Counted from the stretch's first letter, positions 27,992-63,761 are shown. The stretch is DNA of 64,000 bases from Eledone cirrhosa (GCA_964016885.1 OZ024766.1:3100001-3164000); one strand, 5' to 3'. Notes: generated by a model from the letters alone, not told the origin. Program-made: numbers and translations.

Positions 27992-28531
27992 TCAGTGATG
28001 AGGCTTTTCTCCTGTATGAATACGTATATGTCTAGTTAACTGATCAGCTCGAGAGAATGATTTACCACAGATATCACATTGATGAGCTTTCTCTCCTGTA
28101 TGAATGTGTTTATGTTTAGTTAAGTTAGCATTTTGAGAGAATGATTCACCACAGATATCACAGTGATAAGGCTTCTCTCCTGTATGAATATATTTATGTC
28201 TAGATAAACTACTTGACTGAGAGAATAACTTACCACAGATATCACAGTGATGAGGTTTCTCTCCTGTATGAATACGTATGTGTTTAGTTAAGTCAACCTT
28301 ACACGGGAATGATTTACCACAGATATCACAGTGATGGGGTTTCTCTCCTGTATGGACAGATTTGTGTCTACTTAAACTACTTGACAGAGAAAATGATTTA
28401 CCACAGATGTCACACTGATGAGGCTTCTCTCCAGTATGAATACGTATGTGTTTAGTTAAGTAACCCGACACAGAGAATGATTTACCACAGATATCACAGT
28501 CGTATGATGATTTTTTGTTCCTCTTTGACAT
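27992..28531 (-). CDS. Short C2H2 zinc-finger protein, 6 fingers (ZNF-5)
   Basis: 179-aa ORF with the same leader, first three finger types and terminal RADQLTR finger as its paralogs. Confidence 0.88.
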
Positions 28532-34865: not shown

Positions 34866-36581
34866 TCAGTGATGAGGCTTTTCTCCTGTATGAAGACGTA
34901 TATGTCTAGTTAACTGATCAGCTCGAGAGAATGGTTTACCACAGATATCACAGTGATGAGGCTTCTCTCCTGTATGAAGATATTTGTGTTGAATTAAACT
35001 ATTCGACTGAGAGAATGACTTACCACAGATATCACATTGATGAGGCTTCTCTCCTGTATGAAGATATTTGTGTTGAATTAAACTATTCGACTGAGAGAAT
35101 GACTTACCACAGATATCACATTGATGAGGCTTCTCTCCTGTATGAATGTGTTTATGTTTAGTTAAGTTAGCATTTTGAGAGAATGATTCACCACAGATAT
35201 CACAGTGATGAGGCTTCTCTCCTGTATGAATATATTTATGTTTAGATAAACTACTTGACTGAGAGAATAACTTACCACAGATATCACAGTGATGAGGTTT
35301 CTCTCCTGTATGAATACGTTTATGTGTCGTTAAATGCGCTGACAAAGAGAATGACTTTCCACAGATATCACAAGGATGAGGCTTCTCTCCAGTATGACTA
35401 TATTTATGTACAGTTAATTGACCTGACTGAGAGAATGACTTTCCACATATATCACAGTGATGAGGCTTCTCTCCTGTATGACTATATTTATGTACAGTTA
35501 ATTGACCTGACTGAGAGAATGACTTTCCACAGATATCACAGTGATGAGGCTTCTCTCCTGTATGACTATATTTATGTACAGTTAACTGACTTGACCGGGA
35601 GAATGACTTCCCACAGATTTCACAGTGATAAGGTTTCTCTCCTGTATGAATATATTTATGTTTAGATAAACTACTTGGTTGAGAGAATGATTCACCACAG
35701 ATATCACAGTGATGAGGCTTCTCTCCAGTATGAATATATTTATGTTTAGATAAACTACTTGACTGAGAGAATAACTTACCACAGATATCACAGTGATGAG
35801 GCTTCTCTCCTGTATGAATACGTTTATGTGTAGTTAAATGCGCTGACAAAGAGAATGACTTTCCACAGATATCACAGTGATGAGGTTTCTCTCCTGTATG
35901 ACTATATTTATGTACAGTTAACTGACTTGACCAGGAGAATGACTTACCACAGATTTCACAGTGATAAGGTTTATTTCCTGTATGAATATATTTGTGTAGA
36001 GTTAAACTACTCGACTGAGAGAATGACTTACCACAGATATCACATTCATGAGGTTTCTCTCCTGTATGAATGAATTTATGTCTAGTTAAGTGATCATTGC
36101 GAGAGAATGATTCACCACAGATATCACAGTGATGAGGCTTCTCTCCTGTATGAATATATTTATGTTTAGATAAACTACTTGGCTGAGAGAATAACTTACC
36201 ACAGATTTCACAGTGATGAGGCTTCTCTCCGGTATGAATACGTTTATGTGTAGTTAAATGCGCTGACAAAGAGAATGACTTTCCACAGATATCACAGTGA
36301 TGAGGTTTCTCTCCTGTATGAATACGTATGTGTTTAGTTAAGTCACCCTTACACGAGAATGATTTACCACAGATATCACAGTGATGGGGTTTCTCTCCTG
36401 TATGGACAGATTTGTGTCTACTTAAACTACTTGACATAGAAAATGATTTACCACAGATGTCACACTGATGAGGCTTCTCTCCTGTATGTAGACGTATGTG
36501 TTTAGTTAAGTAACCCGACACAGAGAATGATTTACCACAGATATCACAGTCGTATGATGATTTTTTGTTCCTCTTTGACAT
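34866..36581 (-). CDS. Poly-C2H2 zinc-finger protein, 20 fingers (ZNF-6)
   Basis: 571-aa finger ORF. Confidence 0.93.
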
Positions 36582-37990
36582 CTCTTCAGGAAAAAATATT
36601 TTTGCACAGCAGAAAATAAAGATGTTTTTTCTTGGTCTTCTTTTTATAGTTTATTCCTAATAAATATTTTCAAAGTTAAATTTCCATCAACTTTGATTTT
36701 TGTTGACACCTGAAAATGATGCAAATTCCTTTATAGATTTACCCAAGTTTAATAAGAATACTATATCTTCTTGTACACTTTCCAGATAGTGAGGAGATAA
36801 ATTATTTAATGAACCTCAGTTCAGAAGAAATACTTCACTGTAAGTCATCAAATGCTGATATAAAAAGACTTATATGAATACTGTGTAAAATGTTGTGTTA
36901 GTTTTTGAAAGATATTGATGTTGTATCCGAAGTTAAAATTTCTCTTCTGTCAATGTCATGTGATATTCTGAAATAGCAGAGAAAACAAAATAAGTTATGG
37001 AGAATGTTGAAATGTGATTCAATAATGGAAATTTTACATTTCTATATTGATAAACTGTATATATAAACTTTCAGCTGAATAATTAAACTTTTCAATGTGT
37101 AAAAGTGTATTATACATCATGTGTGTGCATATATATTATATATACATTATATGCCAGCGTACAAGTCAATATTTATAGGCTAAAAATCTCACCTGCTCAG
37201 TTTCCTAGAAAATGAGTCATTTCCGACTGATTTTGAGGTTAGGTTTGTTGGAAACACGAAAACAAACTAGGAAAATTAACAATTTCCCACCTGACGACTG
37301 ACAGGTGGTTTTGCTGTAAATTTACCTTAAATTAAAACAGATTTAGGCTAACATGTAGACAGATTTAATTAACTTTAAACAACAAAGTACAGCTGAATAT
37401 AAACTATATATTATAATACAAGGTAGTGAACAACATGATTAAATAGACGGAGGTAACTTAAATAATAAGGACACTCATAATAACAATCTATTTTATATCA
37501 CATGTAACAGTAGAATCTAGCTATTGTAAAATAAGACAACATTTCAGTCTAGAAGTATTTTCCTGTATATAAAAGTGACGAGGAAGAAATATGTCCAAAG
37601 TTGTTAAATATTTTCACTTGTATATAATTACTGTATCGTTGAAAGGTTCACATAATTCTATTATTTACACACATTATTATAGACTTCAAGTAAATCTTTC
37701 TCAACTTACCCTCTTCACATGTAATCAATGTGTTGTCTTCTTATATTTTATTAAACAACCAAAGAAATAATCTTCTTGTTGTTGTTGAATAAGAATTTCC
37801 AAAGATTTTATCAGCTTTTCTTTGTCCGCCATTAATGTTGGTGTATCTTCTTATTCTTTAGCCACAGATTCGTATCTTGTCACGATGAAGCTGTTAAGCT
37901 AGCTTTCTTTGTTTAAGGTATATGTTCCTCGTTGTCTTTCCCATTTGCCTCTCTACGCATGTGTATCTGTGTTTATATATATATATATTA

Positions 37991-38801
37991 GGCATTGGTA
38001 AAATATAACGTCCGGGAAAGTGAAACTAATTTTTATGACAAGTGAATGTGTTTGTTTGTTATTTTTTTACACTGAAAATTACGATACAGTTTGTTTATTT
38101 ACAACAGGTCTCTATAGTGATATGGTGTTAATTAGTATTGCGTGTGTGATTACTTTCTCTTATATATATATGTGTGGGTGTGTATATGTGTGTATATATA
38201 TATGTGTGTCCGTATGTATATATATATATGTCTGTTTGTATATATATATATGTTTGTGTCATCATCATCGTTTAGATGTTTTTGTAATATCTTGCCAAAG
38301 TTGGCACCAACTTTCTGTCCCCCAAAGGAATTAAGGCCGGGTCATAAGAAGGACAGAGAATGATAAAGGATTTGGGTCAGAGATATTGAGGAAATTCAAG
38401 GTGGCATTTACCTCCATGATGTTGATGTGCACCAACGGAACTTTGTCGATCCTGAAGACCCTAATGTGCACACACAACTCATAGAGAACACTTGGAGCCG
38501 TGCGAAGAAAAAGCTCCGTCGACAACATGGGACAAGCGACGATTTATTCCCCTCGTATTTAGCTGAATTTCTTTGGCGGCAGAGAGTTGGTGCCAACAAA
38601 TTTGGCGAGATGGTCAACTGTATTTCAGCTATTTATACGGTCTAATAAGGATGTTGATAAGGTAAGTATAATTTTCCGTACACACAATACACAAAAAAAG
38701 AAAAAGAAAAAATAATCACACACGCAATACTAAAAAACAAACACATTCACTTGTCATAAAAATTAGTTTCACTTTCCCGGACGTTATATTTTACCAATGC
38801 C
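37991..38801 (+). mobile_element. Internally deleted Merlin (IS1595/ISXO2-like) DNA transposon, unit 6
   Basis: 67-bp perfect TIRs starting GGCATTGG; 9-bp TSD tatatatta/tatgtatta; transposase C-terminal remnant NFVDPEDPNVHTQLIENTW...SYLAEFLWR at 38427..38645. Confidence 0.88.
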
Positions 38802-38979
38802 TATGTATTAATTCAAAATATAAATAAATATAGACATAAACGTAATAAAAATATATTTTATTATATATATTTCGGAGGTACTGTGCTGTTTTTTTTCAGT
38901 ACGTCCTCATCTGATAAAATATATAAATTGATGTGTGACATATCTTAACTGTGCTGATGGTTCAATTCCAGCATTGGCA

Positions 38980-39037
<58 letters not shown>

Positions 39038-39079
39038 ATGTATATATATATATGTGTATATATATATATATATATACAC

Positions 39080-39117
<38 letters not shown>

Positions 39118-39408
39118 GTGTGTGTATGTGTGAGTATATATATATATATTTCGTTTTTTAATGCTTTGCAAGATTATTTTTACCTGAAAACTTATGTTGA
39201 AACAGATATTGTTATACTTTGGGAGGGTCATTCTGCCAATTAAAACACACACTCCCGTTGTTTTTCAATTCAATTTATTATAAATTTCAGGTTGGTTGGT
39301 TGGTTTAATAACCGGATGGTTGTTTATATATTGCCAAAGCCCTTTCGTCACACACTGTGACCTCCTCATTGACTGGTTTCTTATTTTGTGTCTCTCCTGT
39401 CCTACACC

Positions 39409-40170
39409 AACTTGTTTTATTGAACGCTGTAACACCAGAGGACTGTGTCATTCCCATTGGGAGATTTCGTTGAGTCAGGTCTGCCTTTATCATTTCATCC
39501 CACGTCTTCTCTAGGTGCTTCCTGTAGCCTTTAAAGTCCTGCACCACTTTAAACAGCTGTCATCCTTCATGTGCATCCTATGACCATACCACCAGTCTTC
39601 TACCCTGCACACAGCATTTGATCCCTCTTATGCCCTGTTTTGCCCCTAATACATATACACTTTGCCGTTCATGTACAACTTTGTTACACATCCATCTGAT
39701 CATATAGACTTTGTTTCTTTCCAATCTCCATAGGACCTCAGTACTCAGAGCCCATATTTTGCTACCATGTAGCATTGCTGAGTGCACACAGGCATTGTAA
39801 AGTTTGCTTTTTATCTAGAGTGAGAGACCTTTTGTAGTTAACAGTTGCAGCAGCTCCCTCAACTTTTTCCAACCCGCTCTTATCCTTGCAACTCTGCTTT
39901 ATGCACAGCCTCCTCCTCAGCTGATTTTGTTCCCAAGATAGAAGCTATCAGCAATTTTTATGGGGTCTTCTGTGCATTTAAGGGCGCCTGCTATGTGAAG
40001 GTCTTTGCCTACTTCCCTTGTGCAGCGTTCACATATCAAGTTGGTTTTTCTTGTGATCCTGCCAGTTTTCTCACTACATCACTTGTGTACCCACTATCTG
40101 CATTTGGTACACTAGATACAATTCCTACCTACTCCTTTCCTGCACACTAAGCAGAGCCATTTCCCAGAGT
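39409..40170 (-). mobile_element. Old degenerate RTE LINE fragment, unit 6
   Basis: Paralog of 3800..4560. Confidence 0.85.
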
Positions 40171-40870
40171 ATAATATTTGGTTAAAATATATTTTATAAC
40201 ACCCCAAAAAATGTTTCTTGTCAGTAAAGAACTAACATCCAATACATTTTACACTATGTATCATCTATTGACAATATGACATTTTAATAAAATGAGAGTT
40301 CTCTGATCATTATTTTACAAATATATTTACCCGTCAAGTGCGAAAGGTTGGCGACCATTGCTCTATGTAGAGTGGTTGGTTTTAGGAAGGGGCATCCAGT
40401 CATAGAATCTATGTCAAAAAAAGATTGAGAGGACCCTGCAGCTATGTGAAGGGCACGACAACCTCTCCAGTGTTGGTGATACAAAATTGCATCCGCACCC
40501 AACAGACAAATATGACAGCATAGACCTTTGAGTGATGACAAATATTCACTTCAAAACCCCCAATGTCCATTCAGTCTACAACATTATGGGATAGAGGGTC
40601 CCTTACTCATACACAACAGGAAATGTGGGTGTTGCCCTCTAAATATTTCTTGTGGCCAGCTACAGTATTAGGTCATGGGATAGAGGGTCCCTCAATTATA
40701 CACTACAACAGGAAACGTGGTTGTGGCCAAAAAATAAATTTTAGAAGACAACTATCAGATATGAGAACTACTTTAATCCCATTTAAAAATAAAATAAAAA
40801 AAATAGAAAACAATATTTAGAAGCTGTAGAAATACTAAGGGTTTCCTTGTGATATTAGTTGACAATAGGT

Positions 40871-41360
<490 letters not shown>

Positions 41361-42908
41361 TCAGTGAAGAGGCTTTTCTCCTGTATGAAGACATATATGT
41401 CTACTTAACTGATCAGCTCGAGAGAATGATTTACCACAGATATCACAGGAATGAGGCTTCTCTCCTGTATGAATACGTTTATGTGTAGTTAAATGCGATG
41501 ACGAAGAGAATGACTTTCCACAGATATCACAAGGATGAGGCTTCTCTCCAGTATGACTATATTTATGTACAGTTAATTGACCTGACTGAGAGAATGACTT
41601 TCCACAGATTTCACAGTGATAAGGTTTATTTCCTGTATGAATATATTTGTGTAGAGTTAAACTACTCGACTGAGAGAATGACTTACCACAGATATCACAT
41701 TCATGAGGTTTCTCTCCTGTATGAATGAATTTATGTCTAGTTAAGTGAGCATTTTGAGAGAATGATTCACCACAGATATCACAGTGATAAGGTTTTTCTC
41801 CTGTATGAATACGTATGTGTCCAGTTAAATTGCTCGCCGCAGCGAATGACTTACCACAGATATCACAGTGATGAGCTTTCTCTCCTGTATGAATTAATTT
41901 ATGTCTAGTTAAGTGATCATTTCGAGAGAATGATTCACCACAGATATCACAGTGATGAGGCTTCTCTCCTGTATGAAGATATTTGTGTTGAATTAAATTA
42001 CTCGACTGAGAGAATGACTTACCACAGATATCACAGTGATGAGGCTTCTCTCCTGTATGAATGAATTTATGTTTAGTTAAGTAATAATTTTGAGAGAATG
42101 ATTCACCACAGATATGACAGTGATAAGGTTTCTCTCCTGTATGAATATATTTATGTCTAGATAAACTACTTGACTGAGAGAATAACTTACCACAGATATC
42201 ACAGTGATGAGGTTTCTCTCCTGTATGACTACGTTTGTGTATAGTTAAGGCACTTGTACAAGAGAATGACTTTCCACAGATATCACAAGGATGAGGCTTC
42301 TCTCCAGTATGACTATATTTATGTACAGTTAATTGACCTGACTGAGAGAATGACTTTCCACATATATCACAGTGATGAGGCTTCTCTCCTGTATGAATAC
42401 GTTTATGTGTAGTTAAATGCGCTGACAAAGAGAATGACTTTCCACAGATATCACAGTGATGAGGTTTCTCTCCTGTATGACTATATTTATGTACAGTTAA
42501 CTGACTTGACCAGGAGAATGACTTACCACAGATTTCACAGTGATAAGGTTTATTTCCTGTATGAATATATTTGTGTAGAGTTAAACTACTCGACTGAGAG
42601 AATGACTTACCACAGATATCACAGTGATGAGGCTTCTCTCCTGTATGAATGAATTTATGTCTAGTTAAGTGATCATTTCGAGAGAATGATTCACCACAGA
42701 TATCACAGTGATGAGGCTTCTCTCCGGTATGAATACGTTTATGTGTAGTTAAATGCGCTGACAAAGAGAATGACTTGCCACAGATATCACAGTGATGAGG
42801 TTTCTCTCCTGTATGAATACGTATGTGTTTAGTTAAGTCACCCTTACACGAGAATGATTTACCACAGATATCACAGTCGTATGATGATATTTTGTTCCTC
42901 TTTGACAT
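41361..42908 (-). CDS. Poly-C2H2 zinc-finger protein, 18 fingers (ZNF-7); lacks the usual first two helices
   Basis: 515-aa finger ORF beginning [27 protein letters not shown]. Confidence 0.93.
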
Positions 42909-44924: not shown

Positions 44925-45686
44925 AACTTGTTTTATCGAACGCTGTAGCGCCAGAGGACTGTGTCATTCCCATTGGGAGATTTCGTTGAGTCAGGTCTGC
45001 CTTTATCGTTTCATCCCACGTCTTCTCTAGGTGCCTCCTGTAGCCTTTAAAGTCCTGCACCACTTTAAACAGCTGTCATCCTTCATGTGCATCCTATGAC
45101 CATACCACCAGTCTTCTACCCTGCACACAGCATTTGATCCCTCTTATGCCCTGTTTTGCCCCTAATACATATACACTTTGCTGTTCATGTACAACTTCGT
45201 TACACAGCCAACTGATCATATAGAATTTGTTTCTTTCCAATCTCCATAGGACCTCAGTACTCAGAGCCCATATTTTGCTACCATGTAGCATTGCTGAGTG
45301 CACACAGGCATTGTAAAGTTTGCTTTTTATCTAGAGTGAGAGACCTTTTGTAGTTAACAGTTACAGCAGCTCCCTCAACTTTTTCCAACCCGCTCTTATC
45401 CTTGCAACTCTGCTTTATGCACAGCCTCCTCCTCAGCTGATTTTGTTCCCAAGATAGAAGCTATCAGCAATTTTTATGGGGTCTTCTGTGCATTTAAGGG
45501 CGCCTGCTATGTGAAGGTCTTTGCCTACTTCCCTTGTGCAGCGTTCACATATCAAGTTGGTTTTTCTTGTGATCCTGCCAGTTTTCTCACTACATCACTT
45601 GTGTACCCACTATCTGCATTTGGTACACTAGATACAATTCCTACCTACTCCTTTCCTGCACACTAAGCAGAGCCATTTCCCAGAGT
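44925..45686 (-). mobile_element. Old degenerate RTE LINE fragment, unit 7
   Basis: Paralog of 3800..4560. Confidence 0.85.
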
Positions 45687-46386
45687 ATAATATTTGGTTA
45701 AAATATATTTTATAACACCCCAAAAAATGTTTCTTGTCAGTAAAGAACTAACATCCAATACATTTTACACTATGTATCATCTATTGACAATATGACATTT
45801 TAATAAAATGAGAGTTCTCTGATCATTATTTTACAAATATATTTACCCATCAAGTGCGAAAGGTTAGCGACCATTGCTCTATGTAGAGTGGTTGGTTTTA
45901 GGAAGGGGCATCCAGTCATAGAATCTATGTCAAAAAAAGATTGAGAGGACCCTGCAGCTATGTGAAGGGCACGACAACCTCTCCAGTGTTGGTGATACAA
46001 AATTGCATCCTCACCCAACAGACAAATATGACAGCATAAACCTTTGAGTGATGACAAATATTCACTTCAAAACCCCCAATGTTCATTCAGTCTACAACAT
46101 TATGGGATAGAGGGTCCCTTACTCATACACAACAGGAAATGTGGGTGTTGCCCTCTAAATATTTCTTGTGGCCAGCTACAGTATTAGGTCATGGGATAGA
46201 GGGTCCCTCAATTATACACTACAACAGGAAACGTGGTTGTGGCCAAAAAATAAATTTAAGAAGACAACTATCAGATATGAGAACTACTTTAATCCCATTT
46301 AAAAATAAAATAAAAAAAATAGAAAACAATATTTAGAAGCTGTAGAAATACTAAGGGTTTCCTTGTGATATTAGTTGACAATAGGT

Positions 46387-46875
<489 letters not shown>

Positions 46876-49347
46876 TCAGTGAAGAGGCTTTTCTCCTGTA
46901 TGAAGACGTATATGTCTACTTAACTGATCAGCTCGAGAGAATGATATACCACAGATATCACAGGAATGAGGTTTCTCTCCTGTATGAATACGTTTATGTG
47001 TAGTTAAATGCGATGACGAAGAGAATGACTTTCCACAGATATCACAAGGATGAGGCTTCTCTCCAGTATGACTATATTTATGTACAGTTAATTGACCTGA
47101 CTGAGAGAATGACTTTCCACAGATTTCACAGTGATAAGGTTTATTTCCTGTATGAATATATTTGTGTAGAGTTAAACTACTCGACTGAGAGAATGACTTA
47201 CCACAGATATCACATTCATGAGGTTTCTCTCCTGTATGAATGAATTTATGTCTAGTTAAGTGAGCATTTTGAGAGAATGATTCACCACAGATATCACAGT
47301 GATAAGGTTTTTCTCCTGTATGAATACGTATGTGTCCAGTTAAATTGCTCGCCGCAGCGAATGACTTACCACAGATATCACAGTGATGAGCTTTCTCTCC
47401 TGTATGAATGAATTTATGTCTAGTTAAGTGAGCATTTCGAGAGAATGATTCACCACAGATATCACAGTGATGAGGCTTCTCTCCTGTATGAATATATTTA
47501 TGTCTAGATAAACTACTTGACTGAGAGAATAACTTACCACAGATATCGCAGTGATGAGGTTTCTCTCCTGTATGAATACGTTTATGTGTAGTTAAATGCG
47601 CTGACCAAGAGAATGATTTACCACAGATATCACAGTGATGAGGTTTCTCTCCAGTATGACTATATTTATGTACAGTTAACTGACCTGACTGAGAGAATGA
47701 CTTTCCACAGATATCACAGTGATGAGGTTTCTCTCCTGTATGACTATATTTATGTACAGTTAACCGACTTGACTGAGAGAATGACTTACCACAGATTTCA
47801 CAGTGATAAGGTTTATTTCCTGTATGAATATATTTGTGTAGAGTTAAATTACTCGACTGAGAGAATGACTTACCACAGATATCACATTGATGAGCTTTCT
47901 CTCCGGTATGAATGAATTTATGCCTAGTTAAGTTATCATTTTGAGAGAATGATTTACCACAGATATCACAGTGATGAGGCTTCTCTCCTGTATGTAGACG
48001 TATGTGTTTAGTTAAATGATGATTACGAGAGAATGATTTACCACAGATATCACAGTGATGAGGCTTCTCTCCTGTATGACTATATTTATGTACAGTTAAT
48101 CGACTCGGCACAGAGAATGATTTACCACAGATTTCACAGTGATAAGGTTTTTCTCCTGTATGAATACGTATGTGTTCAGCTAAATTGCTCCGCGCAGCGA
48201 ATGGTTTACCACAGATATCACAGTGATGAGGTTTCTCTCCTGTATGACTAGATTTATGTAGAGTTAATCTACTCGAATGAGAGAATGACTTACCACAGAT
48301 ATCACAGTGATGAGGTTTCTCTCCTGTATGACTAGATTTATGTAGAGTTAAACTACTCGAATGAGAGAATGACTTACCACAGATTTCACAGTGATAAGGT
48401 TTTTCTCCTGTATGAATGTATTTATGTCGAGTTAAACTAATGGAGTGAGAGAATGACTTACCACAGGTTTCACAGTGATAAGGTTTTTCTCCTGTATGAA
48501 TGTATTTATGTCGAGTTAAACTAATGGAGTGAGAGAATGACTTACCACAGGTTTCACAGTGATAAGGTTTTTCTCCTGTATGAATACGTATGTGTCCAGT
48601 TAAATTGCTCCGCGCAGCGAATGATTTACCACAGATATCACAGTGATAAGGTTTCTCTCCTGTATGAATACGTTTATGTGTAGTTAAATGCGCTGACAAA
48701 GAGAATGACTTTCCACAGATATCACATGGATGAGGCTTCTCTCCTGTATGACTATATTTATGTACAGTTAATTGACCTGACTGAGAGAATGACTTTCCAC
48801 ATATATCACAGTGATGAGGCTTCTCTCCTGTATGACTATATTTATGTACAGTTAATTGACCTGACTGAGAGAATGACTTCCCACATATATCACAGTGATA
48901 AGGTTTTTCTCCTGTATGAATACGTATGTGTTCAGTTAAATTGATTGGCGCAGCGAATGACTTACCACAGATATCACAGTGATGACGCTTCTCTCTGGTA
49001 TGAATACGTTTATGTGTAGTTAAATGCGCTGACAAAGAGAATGACTTTCCACAGATATCACAGTGATGAGGTTTCTCTCCTGTATGAATACGTATGTGTT
49101 CAGTTAAGTCACCCTTACACGAGAATGATTTACCACAGATATCACAGTGACGGGGTTTCTCTCCTGTATGGACAGATTTGTGTCTACTTAAACTACTTGA
49201 CATAGAAAATGATTTACCACAGATGTCACACTGATGAGGCTTCTCTCCTGTATGAATACGTATGTGTTTAGTTAAGAAACCCAACACAGAGAATGATTTA
49301 CCACAGTTATCACAGTCGTATGATGATTTTTTGTTCCTCTTTGACAT
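46876..49347 (-). CDS. Poly-C2H2 zinc-finger protein, 29 fingers (ZNF-8)
   Basis: 823-aa finger ORF. Confidence 0.93.
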
Positions 49348-50756
49348 CTCTTCAGGTAAAAATATTTTTGCACAGCAGAAAATAAAGATGTTTTTTCTTG
49401 GTCTTCTTTTTATAGTTTATTCCTAATAAATATTTTCAAAGTTAAATTTCCATCAACTTTGATTTTTGTTGACACCTGAAAATGATGCAAATTCCTTTAT
49501 AGATTTACCCAAGTTTAATAAGAATACTATATCTTCTTCTACACTTTCCAGATAGTGAGGAGATAAATTATTTAATGAACCTCAGTTCAGAAGAAATACT
49601 TCACTGTAAGTCATCAAATGCTGATATAAAAAGACTTATATGAATACTGTGTAAAATGTTGTGTTAGTTTTTGAAAGATATTGTTGTTGTATCCGAAGTT
49701 AAAATTTCTCTTCTGTCAATGTCATGTGATATTCTGAAATAGCAGAGAAAACAAAATAAGATATGGAGAATGTTGAAATGTGATTCAATAATGGAAATTT
49801 TACATTTCTATATTGATAAACTGTATATATAAACTTTCAGCTGAATAATTAAACTTTTCAATGTGTAAAAGTGTATTATACATCATGTGTGTGCATATAT
49901 ATTATATATACATTATATGCCAGCGTACAAGTCAATATTTATAGGCTAAAAATCTCACCTGCTCAGTTTCCTAGAAAATGAGTCATTTCCGACTGATTTT
50001 GAGGTTAGGTTTGTTGGAAACACGAAAACAAACTAGGAAAATTAACAATTTCCCACCTGACGACTGACAGGTGGTTTTGCTGTAAATTTACCTTAAATTA
50101 AAACAGATTTAGGCTAACATGTAGACAGATTTAATTAACTTTAAACAACAAAGTACAGCTGAATATAAACTATATATTATAATACAAGGTAGTGAACAAC
50201 ATGATTAAATAGACGGAGGTAACTTAAATAATAAGGACACTCATAATAACAATCTATTTTATATCACATGTAACAGTAGAATCTAGCTATTGTAAAATAA
50301 GACAACATTTCAGTCTAGAAGTATTTTCCTGTATATAAAAGTGACGAGGAAGAAATATGTCCAAAGTTGTTAAATATTTTCACTTGTATATAATTACTGT
50401 ATCGTTGAAAGGTTCACATAATTCTATTATTTACACACATTATTATAGACTTCAAGTAAATCTTTCTCAACTTACCCTCTTCACATGTAATCAATGTGTT
50501 GTCCTCTTATATTTTATTAAACAACCAAAGAAATAATCTTCTTGTTGTTGTTGAATAAGAATTTCCAAAGATTTTATCAGCTTTTCTTTGTCCGCCATTA
50601 ATGTTGGTGTATCTTCTTATTCTTTAGCCACAGATTCGTATCTTGTCACGATGAAGCTGTTAAGCTAGCTTTCTTTGTTTAAGGTATATGTTCCTCGTTG
50701 TCTTTCCCATTTGCCTCTCTACGCATGTGTATCTGTGTTTATATATATATATATTA

Positions 50757-51568
50757 GGCATTGGTAAAATATAACGTCCGGGAAAGTGAAACTAATTTTT
50801 ATGACAAGTGAATGTGTTTGTTTGTTTTTTTTTTTACACTGAAAATTACGATACAGTTTGTTTATTTACAACAGGTCTCTATAGTGATATGGTGTTAATT
50901 AGTATTGCGTGTGTGATTACTTTCTCTTATATATATATGTGTGGGTGTGTATATGTGTGTATATATATATGTGTGTCCGTATGTATATATATATATGTCT
51001 GTTTGTATATATATATATGTTTGTGTCATCATCATCGTTTAGATGTTTTTGTAATATCTTGCCAAAGTTGGCACCAACTTTCTGTCCCCCAAAGGAATTA
51101 AGGCCGGGTCATAAGAAGGACAGAGAATGATAAAGGATTTGGGTCAGAGATATTGAGGAAATTCAAGGTGGCATTTACCTCCATGATGTTGTTGTGCATC
51201 AACGGAACTTTGTCGATCCTGAAGACCCTAATGTGCACACACAACTCATAGAGAACACTTGGAGCCGTGCGAAGAAAAAGCTCCGTCGACAACATGGGAC
51301 AAGCGACGATTTATTCCCCTCGTATTTAGCTGAATTTCTTTGGCGGCAGAGAGTTGGTGCCAACAAATTTGGCGAGATGATCAACTGTATTTCAGCTATT
51401 TATACGGTCTAATAAGGATGTTGATAAGGTAAGTATAATTTTCCGTACACACAATACACAAAAAAAGAAAAAGAAAAAATAATCACACACGCAATACTAA
51501 AAAACAAACACATTCACTTGTCATAAAAATTAGTTTCACTTTCCCGGACGTTATATTTTACCAATGCC
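50757..51568 (+). mobile_element. Merlin derivative, unit 8
   Basis: Same TIRs, TSD and transposase remnant (51194..51412). Confidence 0.88.
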
Positions 51569-51746
51569 TATGTATTAATTCAAAATATAAATAAATATAG
51601 ACATAAACGTAATAAAAATATATTTTATTATATATATTTCGGAGGTACTGTGCTGTTTTTTTTCAGTACGTCCTCATCTGATAAAATATATAAATTGATG
51701 TGTGACATATCTTAACTGTGCTGATGGTTCAATTCCAGCATTGGCA

Positions 51747-51812
<66 letters not shown>

Positions 51813-51817
51813 ATATA

Positions 51818-51851
<34 letters not shown>

Positions 51852-51854
51852 CAC

Positions 51855-51892
<38 letters not shown>

Positions 51893-52177
51893 GTGTGTGT
51901 ATGTGTGAGTATATATATTTCGTTTTTTAATGCTTTGCAAGATTATTTTTACCTGAAAACTTATGTTGAAACAGATATTGTTATACTTTGGGAGGGTCAT
52001 TCTGCCAATTAAAACACACACTCCCGTTGTTTTTCAATTCAATTTATTATAAATTTCAGGTTGGTTGGTTGGTTTAATAACCGGATGGTTGTTTATATAT
52101 TGCCAAAGCCCTTTCGTCACACACTGTGACCTCCTCATTGACTGGTTTCTTATTTTGTGTCTCTCCTGTCCTACACC

Positions 52178-52939
52178 AACTTGTTTTATTGAACGCTGTA
52201 ACACCAGAGGACTGTGTCATTCCCATTGGGAGATTTCGTTGAGTCAGGTCTGCCTTTATCATTTCATCCCACGTCTTCTCTAGGTGCTTCCTGTAGCCTT
52301 TAAAGTCCTGCACCACTTTAAACAGCTGTCATCCTTCATGTGCATCCTATGACCATACCACCAGTCTTCTACCCTGCACACAGCATTTGATCCCTCTTAT
52401 GCCCTGTTTTGCCCCTAATACATATACACTTTGCCGTTCATGTACAACTTTGTTACACATCCATCTGATCATATAGACTTTGTTTCTTTCCAATCTCCAT
52501 AGGACCTCAGTACTCAGAGCCCATATTTTGCTACCATGTAGCATTGCTGAGTGCACACAGGCATTGTAAAGTTTGCTTTTTATCTAGAGTGAGAGACCTT
52601 TTGTAGTTAACAGTTGCAGCAGCTCCCTCAACATTTTCTAACCTGTTCTTATCCTTGCAACTCTGCTTTATGCACAGCCTCCTCCTCAGCTGATTTTGTT
52701 CCCAAGATAGAAGCTATCAGCAATTTTTATGGGGTGTTCTGTGCATTTAAGGGCACCTGCTATGTGAAGGTCTTTGCCAACTTCCCTTGCACAGCGTTCA
52801 CATATCAAGTTTTTTTTTCTTGTGATCCTGCCAGTTTTCTCACTACATCACGTGTGTACCCACTATCTGCATTTGGTACACTAGATACAATTCCTACCTA
52901 CTCCTTTCCTGCACACTAAGCAGAGCCATTTCCCAGAGT
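52178..52939 (-). mobile_element. Old degenerate RTE LINE fragment, unit 8
   Basis: Paralog of 3800..4560. Confidence 0.85.
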
Positions 52940-53640
52940 ATAATATTTGGTTAAAATATATTTTATAACACCCCAAAAAATGTTTCTTGTCAGTAAAGAA
53001 CTAACATCCAATACATTTTACACTATGTATCATCTATTGACAATATGACATTTTAATAAAATGAGAGTTCTCTGATCATTATTTTACAAATATATTTACC
53101 CGTGAAGTGCGAAAGGTCGGCGACCATTGCTCTATGTAGAGTGGTTGGTTTTAGGAAGGGGCATCCAGTCATAGAAGCTATGTCAAAAAAAGATTGAGAG
53201 GACCCTGCAGCTATGTGAAGGGCATGACAACCTCTCCAGTGTTGGTGATACAAAATTGCATGCTCACCCAACAGACAAATATGACAGCATAGACCTTTGA
53301 GTGATGACAAATATTCACTTCAAAACCCCCAATGTCCATTCAGTCTACAACATTATGGGATAGAGGGTCCCTTACTCATACACAACAGGAAATCTGGGTG
53401 TTGCCCTCTAAATATTTCTTGTGGCCAGCTACAGCATTATGTCATGGGATAGAGGGTCCCTCAATTATACACTACAACAGGGAACGTGGTTGTTGCCAAA
53501 AATAAAATTTAAGAAGACAACTATCAGATATGAGAATAACTTTAATCCCATTTAAAAATAAAATTAAAAAAATAGGAAAACAATATTTAGAAGCTGTAGA
53601 AATACTAAGCGTTTCCTTGTGATATTAGTTGACAATAAGT

Positions 53641-54126
<486 letters not shown>

Positions 54127-56766
54127 TCAGTGATGAGGTTTCTCTCCTGTATGAAGACGTATATGTCTAGTTAACTGATCAGCTCGAGAGAATGATTTAC
54201 CACAGATATCACAGGAATGAGGCTTCTCTCCTGTATGAATACGTTTATGTGTAGTTAAATGCGCTGACAAAGAGAATGACTTTCCACAGATATCACAAGG
54301 ATGAGGCTTCTCGCCAGTATGACTATATTTATGAACAGTTAATTGACCTGACTGAGAGAATGACTTTCCACAGATATCACAGTGATGAGGCTTCTCTCCT
54401 GTATGACTATATTTATGTACAGTTAACTGACTTGACAGGGAGAATGACTTCCCACAGATTTCACAGTGATAAGGTTTCTTTCCTGTGTGAATATATTTAT
54501 GTTTAGATAAAATACTTGGTTGAGAGAATGACTTACCACAGATATCACATTCATGAGGTTTCTCTCCTGTATGAATGTATTTATGTGTAGTTAAGTGATC
54601 ATTTCGAGAGAATGATTCACCACAGATATCACAGTGATGAGGCTTCTCTCCTGTATGAATATATTTATGTTTAGATAAACTACTTGACTGAGAGAATGAC
54701 TTACCACAGATATCACAGTGATGAGGCTTCTCTCCTGTATGAATACGTTTATGTGTAGTTAATTGACCTGACTGAGAGAATGACTTTCTACAGATATCAC
54801 AGTGATGAGGCTTCTCTCCTGTATGACTATATTTATGTTTAGATAAACTACTTGACAGGGAGAATGACTTCCCACAGATTTCACAGTGATAAGGTTTCTT
54901 TCCTGTATGAAGATATTTGTGTCGAGTTAAACTACTCGACTGAGAGAATGACTTACCACAGATATCACATTCATGAGGTTTCTCTCCTGTATGAATGTAT
55001 TTATGTGTAGTTAAGTGATCATTTCGAGAGAATGATTCACCACAGATATCACAGTGATGAGGCTTCTCTCCTGTATGAATATATTTATGTTTAGATAAAC
55101 TACTTGACTGAGAGAATGACTTACCACAGATATCACAGTGATGAGGCTTCTCTCCTGTATGAATACGTTTATGTGTAGTTAAATGTGCTGACCAAGAGAA
55201 TGACTTTCCACAGATATCACAAGGATGAGGCTTCTCTCCAGTATGACTATATTTATGTACAGTTAATTGACCTGACTGAGAGAATGATTTACCACAGATA
55301 TCACAGTGATGAGGCTTCTCTCCTGTATGAAGATATTTATGTACAGTTAATTGACCTGACTGAGAGAATGACTTTCCACAGATATCACAGTGATGAGGCT
55401 TCTCTCCTGTATGACTATATTTATGTACAGTTAAGTGACTTGACCGGGAGAATGACTTCCCACAGATTTCACAATGATGAGGCTGCTCTCCTGTATGAAG
55501 ATATTTGTGTTTACTTAAATTACTCGACTGAGAGAATGACTTACCACAGATATCACAGTGATGAGGCTTCTCTCCTGTATGAATGAATTTATGTTTAGTT
55601 AAGTAATCATTGTGAGAGAATGATTCACCACAGATATCACAGTGATAAGGTTTCTCTCCTGTATGAATATATTTATGTCTAGATAAACTACTTGACCGAG
55701 AGAATAACTTACCACAGATATCACAGTGATGAGGTTTCTCTCCTGTATGAATACGTTTATGTGTCGCTAAATGCGCTGACAAAGAGAATGACTTTCCACA
55801 GATATCACAAGGATGAGGCTTCTCTCCAGTATGACTATATTTATGTACAGTTAATTGACCTGACTGAGAGAATGACTTTCCACATATATCACAGTGATGA
55901 GGCTTCTCTCCTGTATGACTATATTTATGTACAGTTAACTGACTTGACCAGGAGAATGACTTACTACAGATTTCACAGTGATAAGGTTTATTTCCTGTAT
56001 GAATATATTTGTGTAGAGTTAAACTACTCGACTGAGAGAATGACTTACCACAGATATCACAGTGATGAGGCTTCTCTCCTGTATGACTATATTTATGTAC
56101 AGTTAATCGACTCGGCACAGAGAATGATTTACCACAGATTTCACAGTGATAAGGTTTTTCTCCTGTATGAATACGTATGTGTTCAGCTAAATTGCTCCGC
56201 GCAGCGAATGGTTTACCACAGATATCACAGTGATGAGGTTTCTCTCCTGTATGACTATATTTATGTACAGTTAATTGACCTGACTGAGAGAATGACTTCC
56301 CACATATATCACAGTGATAAGGTTTTTCTCCTGTATGAATACGTATGTGTTCAGTTAAATTGATTGGCGCAGCGAATGACTTACCACAGATATCACAGTG
56401 ATGACGCTTCTCTCTGGTATGAATACGTTTATGTGTAGTTAAATGCGCTGACAAAGAGAATGACTTTCCACAGATATCACAGTGATGAGGTTTCTCTCCT
56501 GTATGAATACGTATGTGTTCAGTTAAGTCACCCTTACACGAGAATGATTTACCACAGATATCACAGTGACGGGGTTTCTCTCCTGTATGGACAGATTTGT
56601 GTCTACTTAAACTACTTGACATAGAAAATGATTTACCACAGATGTCACACTGATGAGGCTTCTCTCCTGTATGAATACGTATGTGTTTAGTTAAGAAACC
56701 CAACACAGAGAATGATTTACCACAGTTATCACAGTCGTATGATGATTTTTTGTTCCTCCTTGACAT
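54127..56766 (-). CDS. Poly-C2H2 zinc-finger protein, 31 fingers (ZNF-9)
   Basis: 879-aa finger ORF. Confidence 0.93.
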   Translation of the reverse strand: MSRRNKKSSYDCDNCGKSFSVLGFLTKHIRIHTGEKPHQCDICGKSFSMSSSLSRHKSVHTGEKPRHCDICGKSFSCKGDLTEHIRIHTGEKPHHCDICGKSFSLSAHLTTHKRIHTREKRHHCDICGKSFAAPINLTEHIRIHTGEKPYHCDICGKSFSQSGQLTVHKYSHTGEKPHHCDICGKPFAARSNLAEHIRIHTGEKPYHCEICGKSFSVPSRLTVHKYSHTGEKPHHCDICGKSFSQSSSLTLHKYIHTGNKPYHCEICSKSFSWSSQLTVHKYSHTGEKPHHCDICGKSFSQSGQLTVHKYSHTGEKPHPCDICGKSFSLSAHLATHKRIHTGEKPHHCDICGKLFSRSSSLSRHKYIHTGEKPYHCDICGESFSHNDYLTKHKFIHTGEKPHHCDICGKSFSQSSNLSKHKYLHTGEQPHHCEICGKSFSRSSHLTVHKYSHTGEKPHHCDICGKSFSQSGQLTVHKYLHTGEKPHHCDICGKSFSQSGQLTVHKYSHTGEKPHPCDICGKSFSWSAHLTTHKRIHTGEKPHHCDICGKSFSQSSSLSKHKYIHTGEKPHHCDICGESFSRNDHLTTHKYIHTGEKPHECDICGKSFSQSSSLTRHKYLHTGKKPYHCEICGKSFSLSSSLSKHKYSHTGEKPHHCDICRKSFSQSGQLTTHKRIHTGEKPHHCDICGKSFSQSSSLSKHKYIHTGEKPHHCDICGESFSRNDHLTTHKYIHTGEKPHECDICGKSFSQPSILSKHKYIHTGKKPYHCEICGKSFSLSSQLTVHKYSHTGEKPHHCDICGKSFSQSGQLTVHKYSHTGEKPHPCDICGKSFSLSAHLTTHKRIHTGEKPHSCDICGKSFSRADQLTRHIRLHTGEKPHH

Positions 56767-58173: not shown

Positions 58174-58985
58174 GGCATTGGTAAAATATAACGTCCGGGA
58201 AAGTGAAACTAATTTTTATGACAAGTGAATGTGTTTGTTTGTTTTTTTTTTTACACTGAAAATTACGATACAGTTTGTTTATTTACAACAGGTCTCTATA
58301 GTGATATGGTGTTAATTAGTATTGCGTGTGTGATTACTTTCTCTTATATATATATGTGTGGGTGTGTATATGTGTGTATATATATATGTGTGTCCGTATG
58401 TATATATATATATGTCTGTTTGTATATATATATGTGTTTGTGTCATCATCATCGTTTAGATGTTTTTGTAATATCTTGCCAAAGTTGGCACCAACTTTCT
58501 GTCCCCCAAAGGAATTAAGGCCGGGTCATAAGAAGGACAGAGAATGATAAAGGATTTGGGTCAGAGATATTGAGGAAATTCAAGGTGGCATTTACCTCCA
58601 TGATGTTGTTGTGCACCAACGGAACTTTGTCGATCCTGAAGACCCTAATGTGCACACACAACTCATAGAGAACACTTGGAGCCGTGCGAAGAAAAAGCTC
58701 CGTCGACAACATGGGACAAGCGACGATTTATTCCCCTCGTATTTAGCTGAATTTCTTTGGCGGCAGAGAGTTGGTGCCAACAAATTTGGCGAGATGATCA
58801 ACTGTATTTCAGCTATTTATACGGTCTAATAAGGATGTTGATAAGGTAAGTATAATTTTCCGTACACACAATACACAAAAAAAGAAAAAGAAAAAATAAT
58901 CACACACGCAATACTAAAAAACAAACACATTCACTTGTCATAAAAATTAGTTTCACTTTCCCGGACGTTATATTTTACCAATGCC
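58174..58985 (+). mobile_element. Merlin derivative, unit 9
   Basis: Same TIRs, TSD and transposase remnant (58611..58829). Confidence 0.88.
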
Positions 58986-61055: not shown

Positions 61056-61541
<486 letters not shown>

Positions 61542-63761
61542 TCAGTGATGAGGCTTTTCTCCTGTATGAAGACGTATATGTCTAGTTAACTGATCAGCTC
61601 GAGAGAATGATTTACCACAGATATCACAGGAATGAGGCTTCTCGCCTGTATGAATACGCTTATGTGTAGTTAAATGCGATGACAAAGAGAATGACTTTCC
61701 ACAGATATCACAAGGATGAGGCTTCTCTCCAGTATGAGTATATTTATGTACAGTTAATTGACCTGACTGAGAGAATGACTTACCACAGATATCACAGTGA
61801 TGAGGCTTCTCTCCTGTATGACTATATTTATGTAGAGTTAAACTACTCGAGTGAGAGAATGACTTACTACAGATATCACAGTGATGAGGTTTTTCTCCTG
61901 TATGAATACGTATGTGTTCAGTTAAATTGCTCGGCGCAGCGAATGACTTACCACAGATATCACAGTGATAAGGCTTCTCTCCTGTATGAATGTATTTATG
62001 TCGAGTTAAACTACTCGAGTGAGAGAATGACTTACCACAGATTTCACAGTGATGAGGCTTCTCTCCTGTATGACTATATTTATGTACAGTTAACCGACCT
62101 GACTGAGAGAATGACTTACCACAGATTTCACAGTGATAAGGTTTTTCTCCTGTATGAATACGTATGTGTTCAGTTAAATTGCTCGGCACAGCGAATGATT
62201 TACCACAGATATCACAGTGATAAGGTTTTTCTCCTGTATGAATACGTATGTGTTCAGTTAAATTGCTTCGCGCAGCGAATGATTTACCACAGATATCACA
62301 GTGATGAGGTTTCTCTCCTGTATGACTAGATTTATGTAGAGTTAAACTACTCGAATGAGAGAATGACTTACCACAGATTTCACAGTGATAAGGTTTTTCT
62401 CCTGTATGAATACGTATGTGTTCAGTTAAATTGCTCGCCGCAGCGAGTAACTTACCACAGATATCACAGTGATAAGGTTTTTCTCCTGTATGAATACGTA
62501 TGTGTTCAGTTAAATTGCTCCGCGCAGCGAATGATTTACCACAGATATCACAGTGATGAGGTTTCTCTCCTGTATGACTAGATTTATGTAGAGTTAAACT
62601 ACTCGACTGAGAGAATGACTTACCACAGATATCACAGTGATAAGGTTTATTTCCTGTATGAAGATATTTGTGTCGAGTTAAACTACTCGACTGAGAGAAT
62701 GACTTACCACAGATATTACATTCATGAGGTTTCTCTCCTGTATGAATGAATTTATGTCTAGTTAAGTGATCATTTCGAGAGAATGATTCACCACAGATAT
62801 CACATTGATGAGCTTTCCCTCCTGTATGAATGAATTTATGTCTAGTTAAGTGAGCATTTTGAGAGAATGATTCAGCACAGATATCACAGTGATGAGCTTT
62901 CCCTCCTGTATGAAGGAATTTATGTCTAGTTAAGTGAGCATTTTGAGAGAATGATTCACCACAGATATCACATTGATGAGCTTTCCCTCCTGTATGAATG
63001 AATTTATGTCTAGTTAAGTGAGCATTTTGAGAGAATGATTTACCACAGATATCACAGTGATGAGGCTTCTCTCCTGTATGACTATATTTATGTACAGTTA
63101 ATTGACCTGACTGAGAGAATGACTTTCCACAGATATCACAGAGATGAGGCTTCTCTCCTGTATGAATATATTTATGTACAGTTAACTGACTTGACCGGGA
63201 GAATGACTTCCCACAGATTTCACAGTGATAAGGTTTCTTTCCTGTATGAATATATTTATGTTTAGATAAACTACTTGGTTGAGAAAATGATTCACCACAG
63301 ATATCACAGTGATGAGGCTTCTCTCCTGTATGAATATATTTATGTACAGTTAACTGACCTGACTGGGAGAATGACTTCCCACAGATTTCACAGTGATGAC
63401 GCTTCTCTCCGGTATGAATACGTTTATGTGTAGTTAAATGCGCTGACAAAGAGAATGACTTTCCACAGATATCACAGTGATGAGATTTCTCTCCTGTATG
63501 AATACGTATGTGTTTAGTTAAGTCACCCTTACACGAGAATGATTTACCACAGATATCACAGTGACGGGGTTTCTCTCCTGTATGGACAGATTTGTGTCTA
63601 CTTAAACTACTTGACATAGAAAATGATTTACCACAGATGTCACACTGATGAGGCTTCTCTCCTGTATGAATACGTATGTGTTTAGTTAAGTAACCCGACA
63701 CAGAGAATGATTTACCACAGATATCACAGTCGTATGATGATTTTTTGTTCCTCTTTGACAT
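61542..63761 (-). CDS. Poly-C2H2 zinc-finger protein, 26 fingers (ZNF-10)
   Basis: 739-aa finger ORF. Confidence 0.93.

Follow-up and report, generated by a model that had tools for sequence, protein, structure and literature searches.

Finger-block exchange in a ten-gene C2H2 zinc-finger cluster of Eledone cirrhosa, with ZNF-8 as the probable parent of its hybrid neighbours

Results

The zinc-finger cluster

The window, that is, the whole stretch of 64,000 nucleotides of Eledone cirrhosa DNA that was analysed (GCA_964016885.1 OZ024766.1:3100001-3164000), has zero N bases and carries ten continuous C2H2 open reading frames (ORFs), all on the minus strand, which we call ZNF-1 to ZNF-10 (Z1 to Z10). 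Besides the genes whose coordinates are given below, these are ZNF-1 (42-1841) and its twin ZNF-3 (13975-15774), which together form the collinear sister of ZNF-8, ZNF-2 (5745-7712), ZNF-4 (19679-21730), the six-finger gene ZNF-5 (27992-28531) and ZNF-10 (61542-63761), near the window edge. Every one of the ten ORFs is intact and keeps the 84-nt register, and all share one plan, in which a 27-nt head is followed by 6 to 31 units, each 84 nt long, and then by a tail of 9 nt. The cluster holds 219 fingers, of which 148 are distinct as DNA, with 62 distinct fingerprints (the residues at -1, +2, +3 and +6); 9 or 10 different residues occur at each of these four positions among the 148 distinct units, and unit matches within the arrays amount to 76-83% (84-bp units). 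The nine spacers (3.9-6.3 kb) are mutually homologous at 92-99%, and the repeat units of the cluster measure 5.5-8 kb. Donor comparisons were confined to the paralogs of the window, with ZNF-1 and ZNF-10 at its edges and no outgroup. Positions within arrays are given as finger and base (f6.79 is base 79 of finger 6).

ZNF-8 (46876-49347, minus strand) is a single uninterrupted ORF of 823 aa with a 9-aa head, 29 C2H2 fingers and a PLH tail. Its fingers lie at 28-aa spacing in exact 84-nt register (n = 29), and it is a tandem Kruppel-type poly-ZNF by the criterion of at least five C-x2-C-x12-H-x3-H fingers with TGEKP-type linkers. Pfam found PF13465 over 28 stretches and PF00096 over 27; the best 25 of the 26 Pfam families were zinc-finger families only, with KRAB absent, and no PR/SET, KRAB or SSXRD domain was found by Pfam in the frame ahead of the array. 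An in-frame stop lies 23 codons upstream of the ATG, and an upstream exon, which might encode more N-terminal sequence, may exist. At about position 49476, some 128 nt upstream of the ATG, there is a pyrimidine-rich, acceptor-like CAG site, and a non-coding exon upstream of ZNF-8 is also possible. Searches with residues 1-200 of ZNF-8 (protein search) and with ZNF-5 (Atlas) returned generic ZNFs only; the best named match of ZNF-5 by identity among the 34 matches listed was an Octopus sinensis ZNF at 66%, and the next named one stood at 53%.

The array has the properties of a PRDM9-like coding minisatellite, with homogenised 84-bp units and variation at the contact residues, and it behaves like one, but ZNF-8 is no member of PRDM9. 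Fingers 10 and 11 of ZNF-8 are an exact 84-nt tandem duplicate (48397-48564) and fingers 12 and 13 are 3 nt apart, both pairs appearing to be recent intra-array duplications. Beyond the stop codon, at 46550-46875 and in the corresponding flanks of the other genes, lie the decayed remains of some three fingers, with frameshifts and, because they trail the stop, the array was probably longer formerly.

Blocks shared by ZNF-8 and its paralogs

The head and fingers 1-6 of ZNF-8 (48817-49347, minus strand) are common to ZNF-9 (56236-56766); 519 nt match exactly, beginning at head+8 and ending at f6.79, as do another 882 nt upstream. The preliminary description had assigned these six fingers to ZNF-9, and this was borne out, since the two genes differed there by 1 nt and, at synonymous sites only, the best collinear run of ZNF-9 differed by 1, versus 6-14 for the other genes. 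The CDNC (AAC) and VLGF (TTC) variants occurred in finger 1 of ZNF-8 and of ZNF-9 only, among 219 fingers.

Fingers 7-13 of ZNF-8 (588 nt, 48229-48816, minus strand) are missing in ZNF-9, where a second exact block of 213 nt matches f13.62-f16.22 of ZNF-8 (48038-48250, minus strand) to f6.62-f9.22 of ZNF-9 (56045-56257). This block overlaps the end of the first one (f6.79) by 18 nt, and the overlap (48821-48838 / 48233-48250) marks the putative deletion junction of ZNF-9. The sole difference between the sixth fingers of the two genes lies past the overlap and is the allele of finger 13 of ZNF-8. Fingers 14-15 of ZNF-8 had 0 differences from fingers 7-8 of ZNF-9 and 2 from ZNF-1, and a GCT (Ala) codon in the ARSNL finger was found only in finger 14 of ZNF-8 and finger 7 of ZNF-9, the other seven of the nine ARSNL fingers having ACT (Thr), suggesting that GCT is derived. 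Because the two exact blocks meet over the 18-nt overlap, the first eight fingers of ZNF-9 may be read as the first fifteen of ZNF-8 minus 588 nt, and ZNF-9 is probably a deletion derivative of ZNF-8. The join of finger 6 to finger 14 would be the derived state, since the ZNF-8 orders f8-9-10 and f13-18 recur in ZNF-1.

ZNF-9 as a whole (54127-56766, minus strand) is probably a hybrid, in which f1-f9.22 came from ZNF-8 with the loss of seven fingers and the rest is mostly of ZNF-6/ZNF-7 type by painting (a jumping alignment of each gene against the other paralogs). Its body was not ZNF-10-like; its last three fingers differed from ZNF-10 at 9 of 252 positions and its proximal downstream flank at 17 of 523. 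The junctions of ZNF-9 overlap by 18-23 nt.

At the other end, fingers 23-29 and the stop codon of ZNF-8 (46876-47472, minus strand) are common to fingers 12-18 of ZNF-7 (41361-41957), with 5 differences in 588 nt and an exact run of 437 nt. The PLH tail was found in ZNF-7 and ZNF-8 only, and the downstream flank of ZNF-8 (45380-46875) differed from its counterpart beside ZNF-7 (39864-41360) at 12/1574 positions, the other seven spacers differing at 37-50/1574, so that the proposed match of last fingers, PLH end and flank to ZNF-7 stood on all three counts. The blocks are about 0.8% apart, with private alleles on either side. ZNF-7 (41361-42908, minus strand) has the composition of a hybrid, with fingers 1-11 of ZNF-6/ZNF-9 type and fingers 12-18 of ZNF-8 type, its NAH/AASNLTG/QNAHLTR run coming after the eleven fingers of the first type. 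Its N-terminal part resembles ZNF-6 (34866-36581, minus strand), the likely source lineage, with an exact match of 260 nt (f4.6-f7.13). Finger 12 of ZNF-7 (41874-41957) is the sole RNDH finger of eight with a KA linker, as in finger 23 of ZNF-8 and finger 18 of ZNF-1, and looks like a one-off hybrid of the kind that a crossover within that finger would leave. Finger 23 of ZNF-8 carries the RNDH-type CGA, and the Cys codon of finger 18 of ZNF-7 is common to finger 21 of ZNF-1/ZNF-3 and missing from ZNF-8. The first finger of ZNF-7 (42798-42908) joins the start of a finger 1 to the helix of a finger 3, ancestral fingers 1-2 having apparently been lost in frame.

Between the two ends, fingers 8-20 of ZNF-8 (47641-48732, minus strand) are collinear in order with fingers 4-15 of ZNF-1/ZNF-3, and the order resumes where fingers 22-25 correspond to fingers 17-20 of ZNF-1. 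Nine finger pairs of ZNF-8 f8-18 and ZNF-1 f4-13 had 11/756 differences, 3 of them synonymous, and the four pairs of the second stretch had 5, 2, 0 and 3; altogether 19 of the 21 ZNF-1 fingers aligned to ZNF-8 in order, 17 of them within 4 nt. The claim that the middle follows ZNF-1/ZNF-3 was therefore upheld for finger order, at a divergence of 1.5%, but not for fingers 14-15, where ZNF-9 is the exact match, and the proposed block limits gave way, since f6.21-f8.4 painted as ZNF-6 with 1 mismatch and the collinearity with ZNF-1/ZNF-3 runs on to finger 25, into the supposed ZNF-7 block.

The divergences were about 0.2% for ZNF-8/ZNF-9 (6/2923 spacer positions, leaving aside the proximal 500 nt), about 0.8% for ZNF-8/ZNF-7 and 1.5% for the ZNF-8/ZNF-1 middle, in which ZNF-8 carries private alleles. 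Compared with spacer 8/9, unrelated spacers were 1.4-2.1% divergent on the upstream side and 2.8-3.6% on the downstream side. Because 1.5% is at the low end of this background, the middle needs no transfer, and its resemblance to ZNF-1/ZNF-3 is likely to reflect shared ancestry older, on these values, than the end blocks. A recent transfer of the middle from ZNF-1/ZNF-3 to ZNF-8 was rejected for its background-level divergence. In a tree of fingers 1-4, from which ZNF-5 and ZNF-7 were left out for want of collinear fingers 1-4, the N block of ZNF-8 grouped with ZNF-9 and not with ZNF-1/ZNF-3; a finger 1 codon of ZNF-8 is common to ZNF-2 and ZNF-4. There is thus an older f4/f8 join, of which the recombinant could equally be ZNF-8 or ZNF-1/ZNF-3.

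Synonymous sites and finger adjacencies

At synonymous sites only, the best collinear run for fingers 14-18 was that of ZNF-1/ZNF-3 (2 differences; others 7-13) and for fingers 24-29 that of ZNF-7 (1; others 10-13), so that, with fingers 1-6, the block-wise affinity of ZNF-8 was supported at all three blocks. Only 3 of 3480 six-finger runs had one synonymous difference or fewer, the median being 19.

For finger adjacencies, the best third-party finger doublet was taken for each pair and compared with 300 shuffles of finger order. With ZNF-7 and ZNF-9 dropped as donors, 17 of the 28 adjacencies of ZNF-8 were matched by third paralogs within 5 nt, among them those at the block edges (f6-7, 4 nt; f8-9, 3; f15-16, 2; f22-23, 4; f23-24, 2; f24-25, 3). 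With ZNF-8 excluded, the best matches lay at 11 nt for f6-7 and 14 nt for f8-9 of ZNF-9 and at 11 nt for f11-12 of ZNF-7, against shuffled medians of 10, 11 and 11. The shuffle P values of the six ZNF-8 edge pairs were 0.05-0.2, none being significant singly, and unmatched adjacencies also occurred away from block edges (ZNF-7 f2-3, 16 nt, and f7-8, 13 nt; ZNF-8 f10-13, 15-19 nt). The pattern favours ZNF-8 as parent without proving it and, because the P values of single doublets are weak, the polarity rests on the adjacency pattern together with the junction sequences.

Spacers and cluster-wide mosaicism

Spacer 8/9, upstream of ZNF-8 (49348-54126), duplicates spacer 9/10 save for the approximately 500 nt nearest the next stop codon (17/523). 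These stop-proximal flanks of ZNF-9 (53863-54126) and ZNF-10 (61178-61541) break the 0.2% match of the two spacers, the former being ZNF-6-like and the latter rich in private alleles, which suggests a donor outside the window for the ZNF-10 flank.

Spacer 8/9 contains the remnant of a DNA transposon (50757-51568) with 72-nt terminal inverted repeats whose arms are 99% identical, a 9-nt target duplication with one mismatch, and a transposase fragment at 51134-51412 (PF12762, E 5e-7); the element is internally deleted. Merlin/IS1595 elements are defined by an IS1595-type DDE transposase, terminal inverted repeats and a target duplication of 8-9 bp, features found in this remnant. The same insertion is present at 37991-38801 and 58174-58985 and thus lies upstream of ZNF-6, ZNF-8 and ZNF-9. 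The Merlin-bearing spacer of ZNF-8 does match that of ZNF-9 (3/1400), as the preliminary description had it, but not exclusively, the spacer of ZNF-6 being nearer (1/1400).

This last spacer, 6/7 (36582-41360), is chimeric. A first switch, to the spacer-8/9 type, falls between 36995 and 37185, and a second, to the spacer-7/8 type, between 39666 and 39864; the middle of spacer 6/7 differed from spacer 8/9 at 1/1400 positions and its right part from spacer 7/8 at 12/1574. Two derived alleles are common to spacers 6/7 and 8/9 and missing in 9/10, and the tree of upstream spacers grouped those of ZNF-6 and ZNF-8, with that of ZNF-9 outside (support 94/100). Recombination among spacers was also indicated by a neighbour incompatibility of 0.101 versus 0.242 in shuffled data (P = 0.0005, 98 informative sites), and AU tests rejected a single history for both spacer halves (p = 0.00015 and 0.001); the mask comprised 776 columns, and a wider one of 2348 columns gave the same pattern. 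No chimera in the window is sharper than spacer 6/7, whose two switches both lie in non-coding DNA, neither of them within the Merlin element. The proposal that crossovers fall inside the coding minisatellite consequently holds for some breakpoints but not for these two.

Painting gave 2.4-4.8 donor switches per 10 fingers. Every gene of the cluster is a mosaic, and exchanges occur in the spacers too. The rate of ZNF-8 (2.4) was the lowest at a jump cost of 3.1 and the second lowest at 4.1, a low count being expected for this gene whichever the direction of exchange. With ZNF-7 and ZNF-9 excluded, f25.41-f28.14 of ZNF-8 matched ZNF-6 with 0 mismatches, and ZNF-8 itself is an older mosaic with layers of unreadable direction. 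Exact tracts of at least 150 nt join many pairs (ZNF-1/ZNF-6/ZNF-7, ZNF-2/ZNF-6 and ZNF-6/ZNF-9). The counts of switches in arrays (78) and spacers (10) were rejected as a comparison of rates, because donor sets, the handling of twins and finger indels differ between them.

Discussion

ZNF-8 as the probable parent

We propose, with a probability of roughly 0.68, that ZNF-8 is a parent and that ZNF-7 and ZNF-9 are hybrids generated by unequal crossovers inside the 84-bp array. Read along the plus strand, each gene runs from its C to its N terminus, so that a duplication hybrid has its N-terminal part from the left neighbour and its C-terminal part from the right one. ZNF-7 fits this geometry, because its N-terminal part is like ZNF-6 and its C-terminal part like ZNF-8, and it also has a novel junction and a duplicated spacer, whose match is broken by a 2.7-kb tract that we take to be later. 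In ZNF-9 the N-terminal part, from the left neighbour ZNF-8, the junction and the duplicated spacer fit, and the C-terminal part mismatches ZNF-10. ZNF-8, sharing its C-terminal part leftwards and its N-terminal part rightwards, has what appears to be the pattern of a parent between two hybrids. It does not itself qualify as a duplication hybrid, with left N, right C and a novel junction, since its geometry is the reverse and third paralogs run through its block edges.

The events could have been as follows. An unequal crossover between a ZNF-6-like gene and ZNF-8 would have duplicated the ZNF-6 N-terminal part, the spacer and the ZNF-8 C-terminal part, giving ZNF-7 (about 0.8% apart). Later, the N-terminal part of ZNF-8 and the Merlin spacer would have been duplicated by a second unequal crossover to give ZNF-9 (about 0.2% apart), which would then have lost fingers 7-13 through intra-array recombination, and some 2.7 kb of the spacer upstream of ZNF-8 would have been copied as a tract into spacer 6/7 (1/1400). 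As exchange in the 84-nt register keeps the products in frame, the ORF of each hybrid would be intact and its -1/+2/+3/+6 contacts newly ordered, and these new fingerprint orders are predicted to bind new DNA sequences.

Some observations run against this scheme. The ZNF-9 body is not ZNF-10-like, contrary to the prediction of a single crossover, and its ZNF-6/ZNF-7-like character calls for at least one extra event, as spacer 6/7 calls for another. The CGA of finger 23 of ZNF-8, the Cys codon of finger 18 of ZNF-7 and the older ZNF-6-like pieces of ZNF-8 do not fit either.

Alternative explanations

An unlikely alternative is that no duplication hybrids arose, the size of the cluster being older and the similarities being due to non-reciprocal conversion tracts that are 0.5-3 kb long, extend out of a spacer into an array and have unassignable directions. 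The internal tract of spacer 6/7, of about 2.7 kb and with two ends, is of this kind, as are the exact tracts of at least 150 nt between many pairs; the mosaic nature of all ten genes and the different C-terminal ends of ZNF-9 and ZNF-10 agree with it as well. However, the tract common to ZNF-8 and ZNF-9 takes up most of a repeat period (the N-terminal part and some 4.3 kb of spacer, 0.2% apart), as in a tandem duplication, and the novel junctions of ZNF-7 and ZNF-9 would remain, making ZNF-8 the donor.

Still less probable, in our judgement, is the reading with which the preliminary description began, a three-way chimera in which ZNF-8 is the recipient, built from ZNF-9 (N-terminal part), ZNF-1/ZNF-3 (middle) and ZNF-7 (C-terminal part), for instance through deletion-type crossovers between extra copies, whose products are known as Lepore-like hybrids. 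The block affinities at synonymous sites are as such a chimera would have them, the geometry of ZNF-8, with its C-terminal part like the left neighbour and its N-terminal part like the right one, also suits a deletion hybrid, and the grouping of its N block with ZNF-9 in the tree of fingers 1-4 implies an older discordance between N block and middle relative to ZNF-1/ZNF-3. Nevertheless, at the block edges the unmatched adjacencies fall in ZNF-9 and ZNF-7, and those of ZNF-8 are matched at 2-4 nt, so that the junctions of ZNF-7 and ZNF-9 would still be required, plus two more in ZNF-8 where third paralogs run through. Since the ZNF-9 block reaches into the ZNF-1/ZNF-3 block, extra events are needed, among them a separate conversion for the identity of fingers 14-15 with fingers 7-8 of ZNF-9. 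The probable origin of ZNF-9 as a deletion derivative of ZNF-8 and the background divergence of the middle, which at 1.5% and with ZNF-8-private alleles is older than the end blocks, likewise speak against ZNF-8 as the product. What does survive of the original idea is that finger-block exchange between paralogs makes in-frame hybrid proteins, as the ten intact ORFs in register attest, and recombination inside the coding repeat does make hybrid ZNFs in this cluster.

Least probable is an assembly artefact, in which haplotypes or near-identical copies stitched within arrays gave false hybrids (ZNF-9, or ZNF-1-2/ZNF-3-4): a false duplication would look geometrically like an unequal crossover and the ZNF-8/ZNF-9 blocks (0.2%) and ZNF-1-2/ZNF-3-4 spacers (99.3% identical) have allele-like values, but the window is free of N, all ten ORFs are in register, the 18-23 nt overlaps in ZNF-9 are too short for an overlap join, the ZNF-7 and ZNF-8 blocks, 0.8% apart, each carry private alleles, and ZNF-7, ZNF-8 and ZNF-9 have private 25-mers in many fingers.

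Relation to known systems

The cluster can be set beside other recombining gene families. In anti-Lepore haemoglobin and in opsin hybrid genes, the product of unequal crossover sits between its two parents; unlike these, crossover here would be possible at any finger offset, so that the hybrids change in length too. For poly-ZNF clusters we refer to Emerson and Thomas 2009 (PMC2604467), Kauzlaric et al. 2017 (PMC5363842) and Bruno et al. 2025 (PMC12575710). According to these papers, poly-ZF paralogs gain and lose fingers and undergo gene conversion (PMC2604467), mouse ZNF paralogs have duplicated and shifted finger blocks (PMC5363842), and young mouse clusters, whose fingerprint arrays are strain-specific, grow by non-allelic recombination (PMC12575710); the same literature has gene conversion in most genes of two chicken ZNF sets and blocks of 2-7 fingerprints repeated in mammalian poly-ZNF genes (PMC2604467, PMC5363842, PMC12575710). 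Tandem paralogs, finger gain and loss, conversion, repeated blocks and non-allelic growth, as described for mammalian poly-ZNF/KRAB-ZNF clusters, are all shared by the present cluster. Unlike KRAB-ZNF clusters, its ORFs are without KRAB, SCAN or other effector domains, and unlike mammalian clusters its units are only 5.5-8 kb long and its junctions are placed to about 20 nt inside the array. The mouse work, in its available portions, stresses breakpoints mediated by transposable elements, whereas the junctions of ZNF-7 and ZNF-9 lie in finger repeats and neither switch of spacer 6/7 falls in the Merlin element.

The coding minisatellite of PRDM9 changes by unit duplication, deletion and conversion, according to PMC3890296. 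The 84-bp units are here, as there, homogenised as DNA, with variation focused at -1, +2, +3 and +6, but PRDM9 turnover concerns alleles of one KRAB and PR/SET gene, while here ten effector-less paralogs draw on one unit pool. The cluster thus exemplifies cleanly what is already known of poly-ZNF clusters, namely recombination with PRDM9-like array turnover.

Accounts of coleoid C2H2 expansions (PMC12513265, PMC9068888) present, in the parts available, counts, trees and expression of clustered, lineage-specific multi-finger genes such as these, and those parts are without finger-block exchange between paralogs. No study of such exchange among cephalopod ZNF paralogs was found in the literature searched, and subscription papers and supplements may cover it. 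The present data are likely to offer a base-resolution view of how an octopus ZNF cluster gains new finger orders, the two ends of one gene having gone into its two neighbours, with the junctions inside the array. In cephalopod C2H2 families, gene trees would then mix histories, and sharing ends with both neighbours would mark a parent rather than a chimera. Since octopus ZNFs are predicted to favour transposable element sequences (PMC10547256), hybrids of this kind would be natural pairs for studying changes of binding specificity.

As a tentative extension, which we hold to be doubtful, octopus clusters of effector-less ZNFs might each act as one cluster-wide coding minisatellite, in which crossovers between paralogs at any offset stay in frame and are so fast that gene number and finger order vary from one individual to another. 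If true, DNA-binding specificities, for example against transposons, would be generated in a PRDM9-like manner across paralogs, which would contribute to an explanation of the cephalopod C2H2 expansion.

Other features of the window

A run search listed eight runs, with no RNA holder among them; Logan contigs from four of the eight gave short pieces on the window, the longest listed being 352 nt, and zero of them spanned any junction. One contig of 352 nt (45816-46167) comes from a different sample and its flank haplotype matches none of the nine spacers, which suggests another individual or population and makes polymorphism of the cluster possible; it was left out of the evidence.

Positions 1-27991 form a tandem duplication of two genes, ZNF-1-ZNF-2 and ZNF-3-ZNF-4, repeating after 13,933 bp. 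ZNF-1 and ZNF-3 have 3 differences in 21 fingers, and ZNF-2 and ZNF-4 differ by finger indels (23 versus 24 fingers), so the arrangement is either a very young duplication or two haplotypes assembled in tandem. Finger 13 of both ZNF-1 (723-806) and ZNF-3 (14656-14739) is without its first Cys (TGT>CGT), the sole broken zinc ligand in the 148 distinct units.

Finally, a fragment of a LINE reverse transcriptase that includes a PHD-like finger occurs in spacers 2/3, 4/5 and 5/6 (11634-12772, 25645-26787 and 32940-33662), as one 380-aa frame in spacer 4/5 and shorter or split in the other two; its best named eukaryotic match by identity is an O. bimaculoides protein, at 66%.
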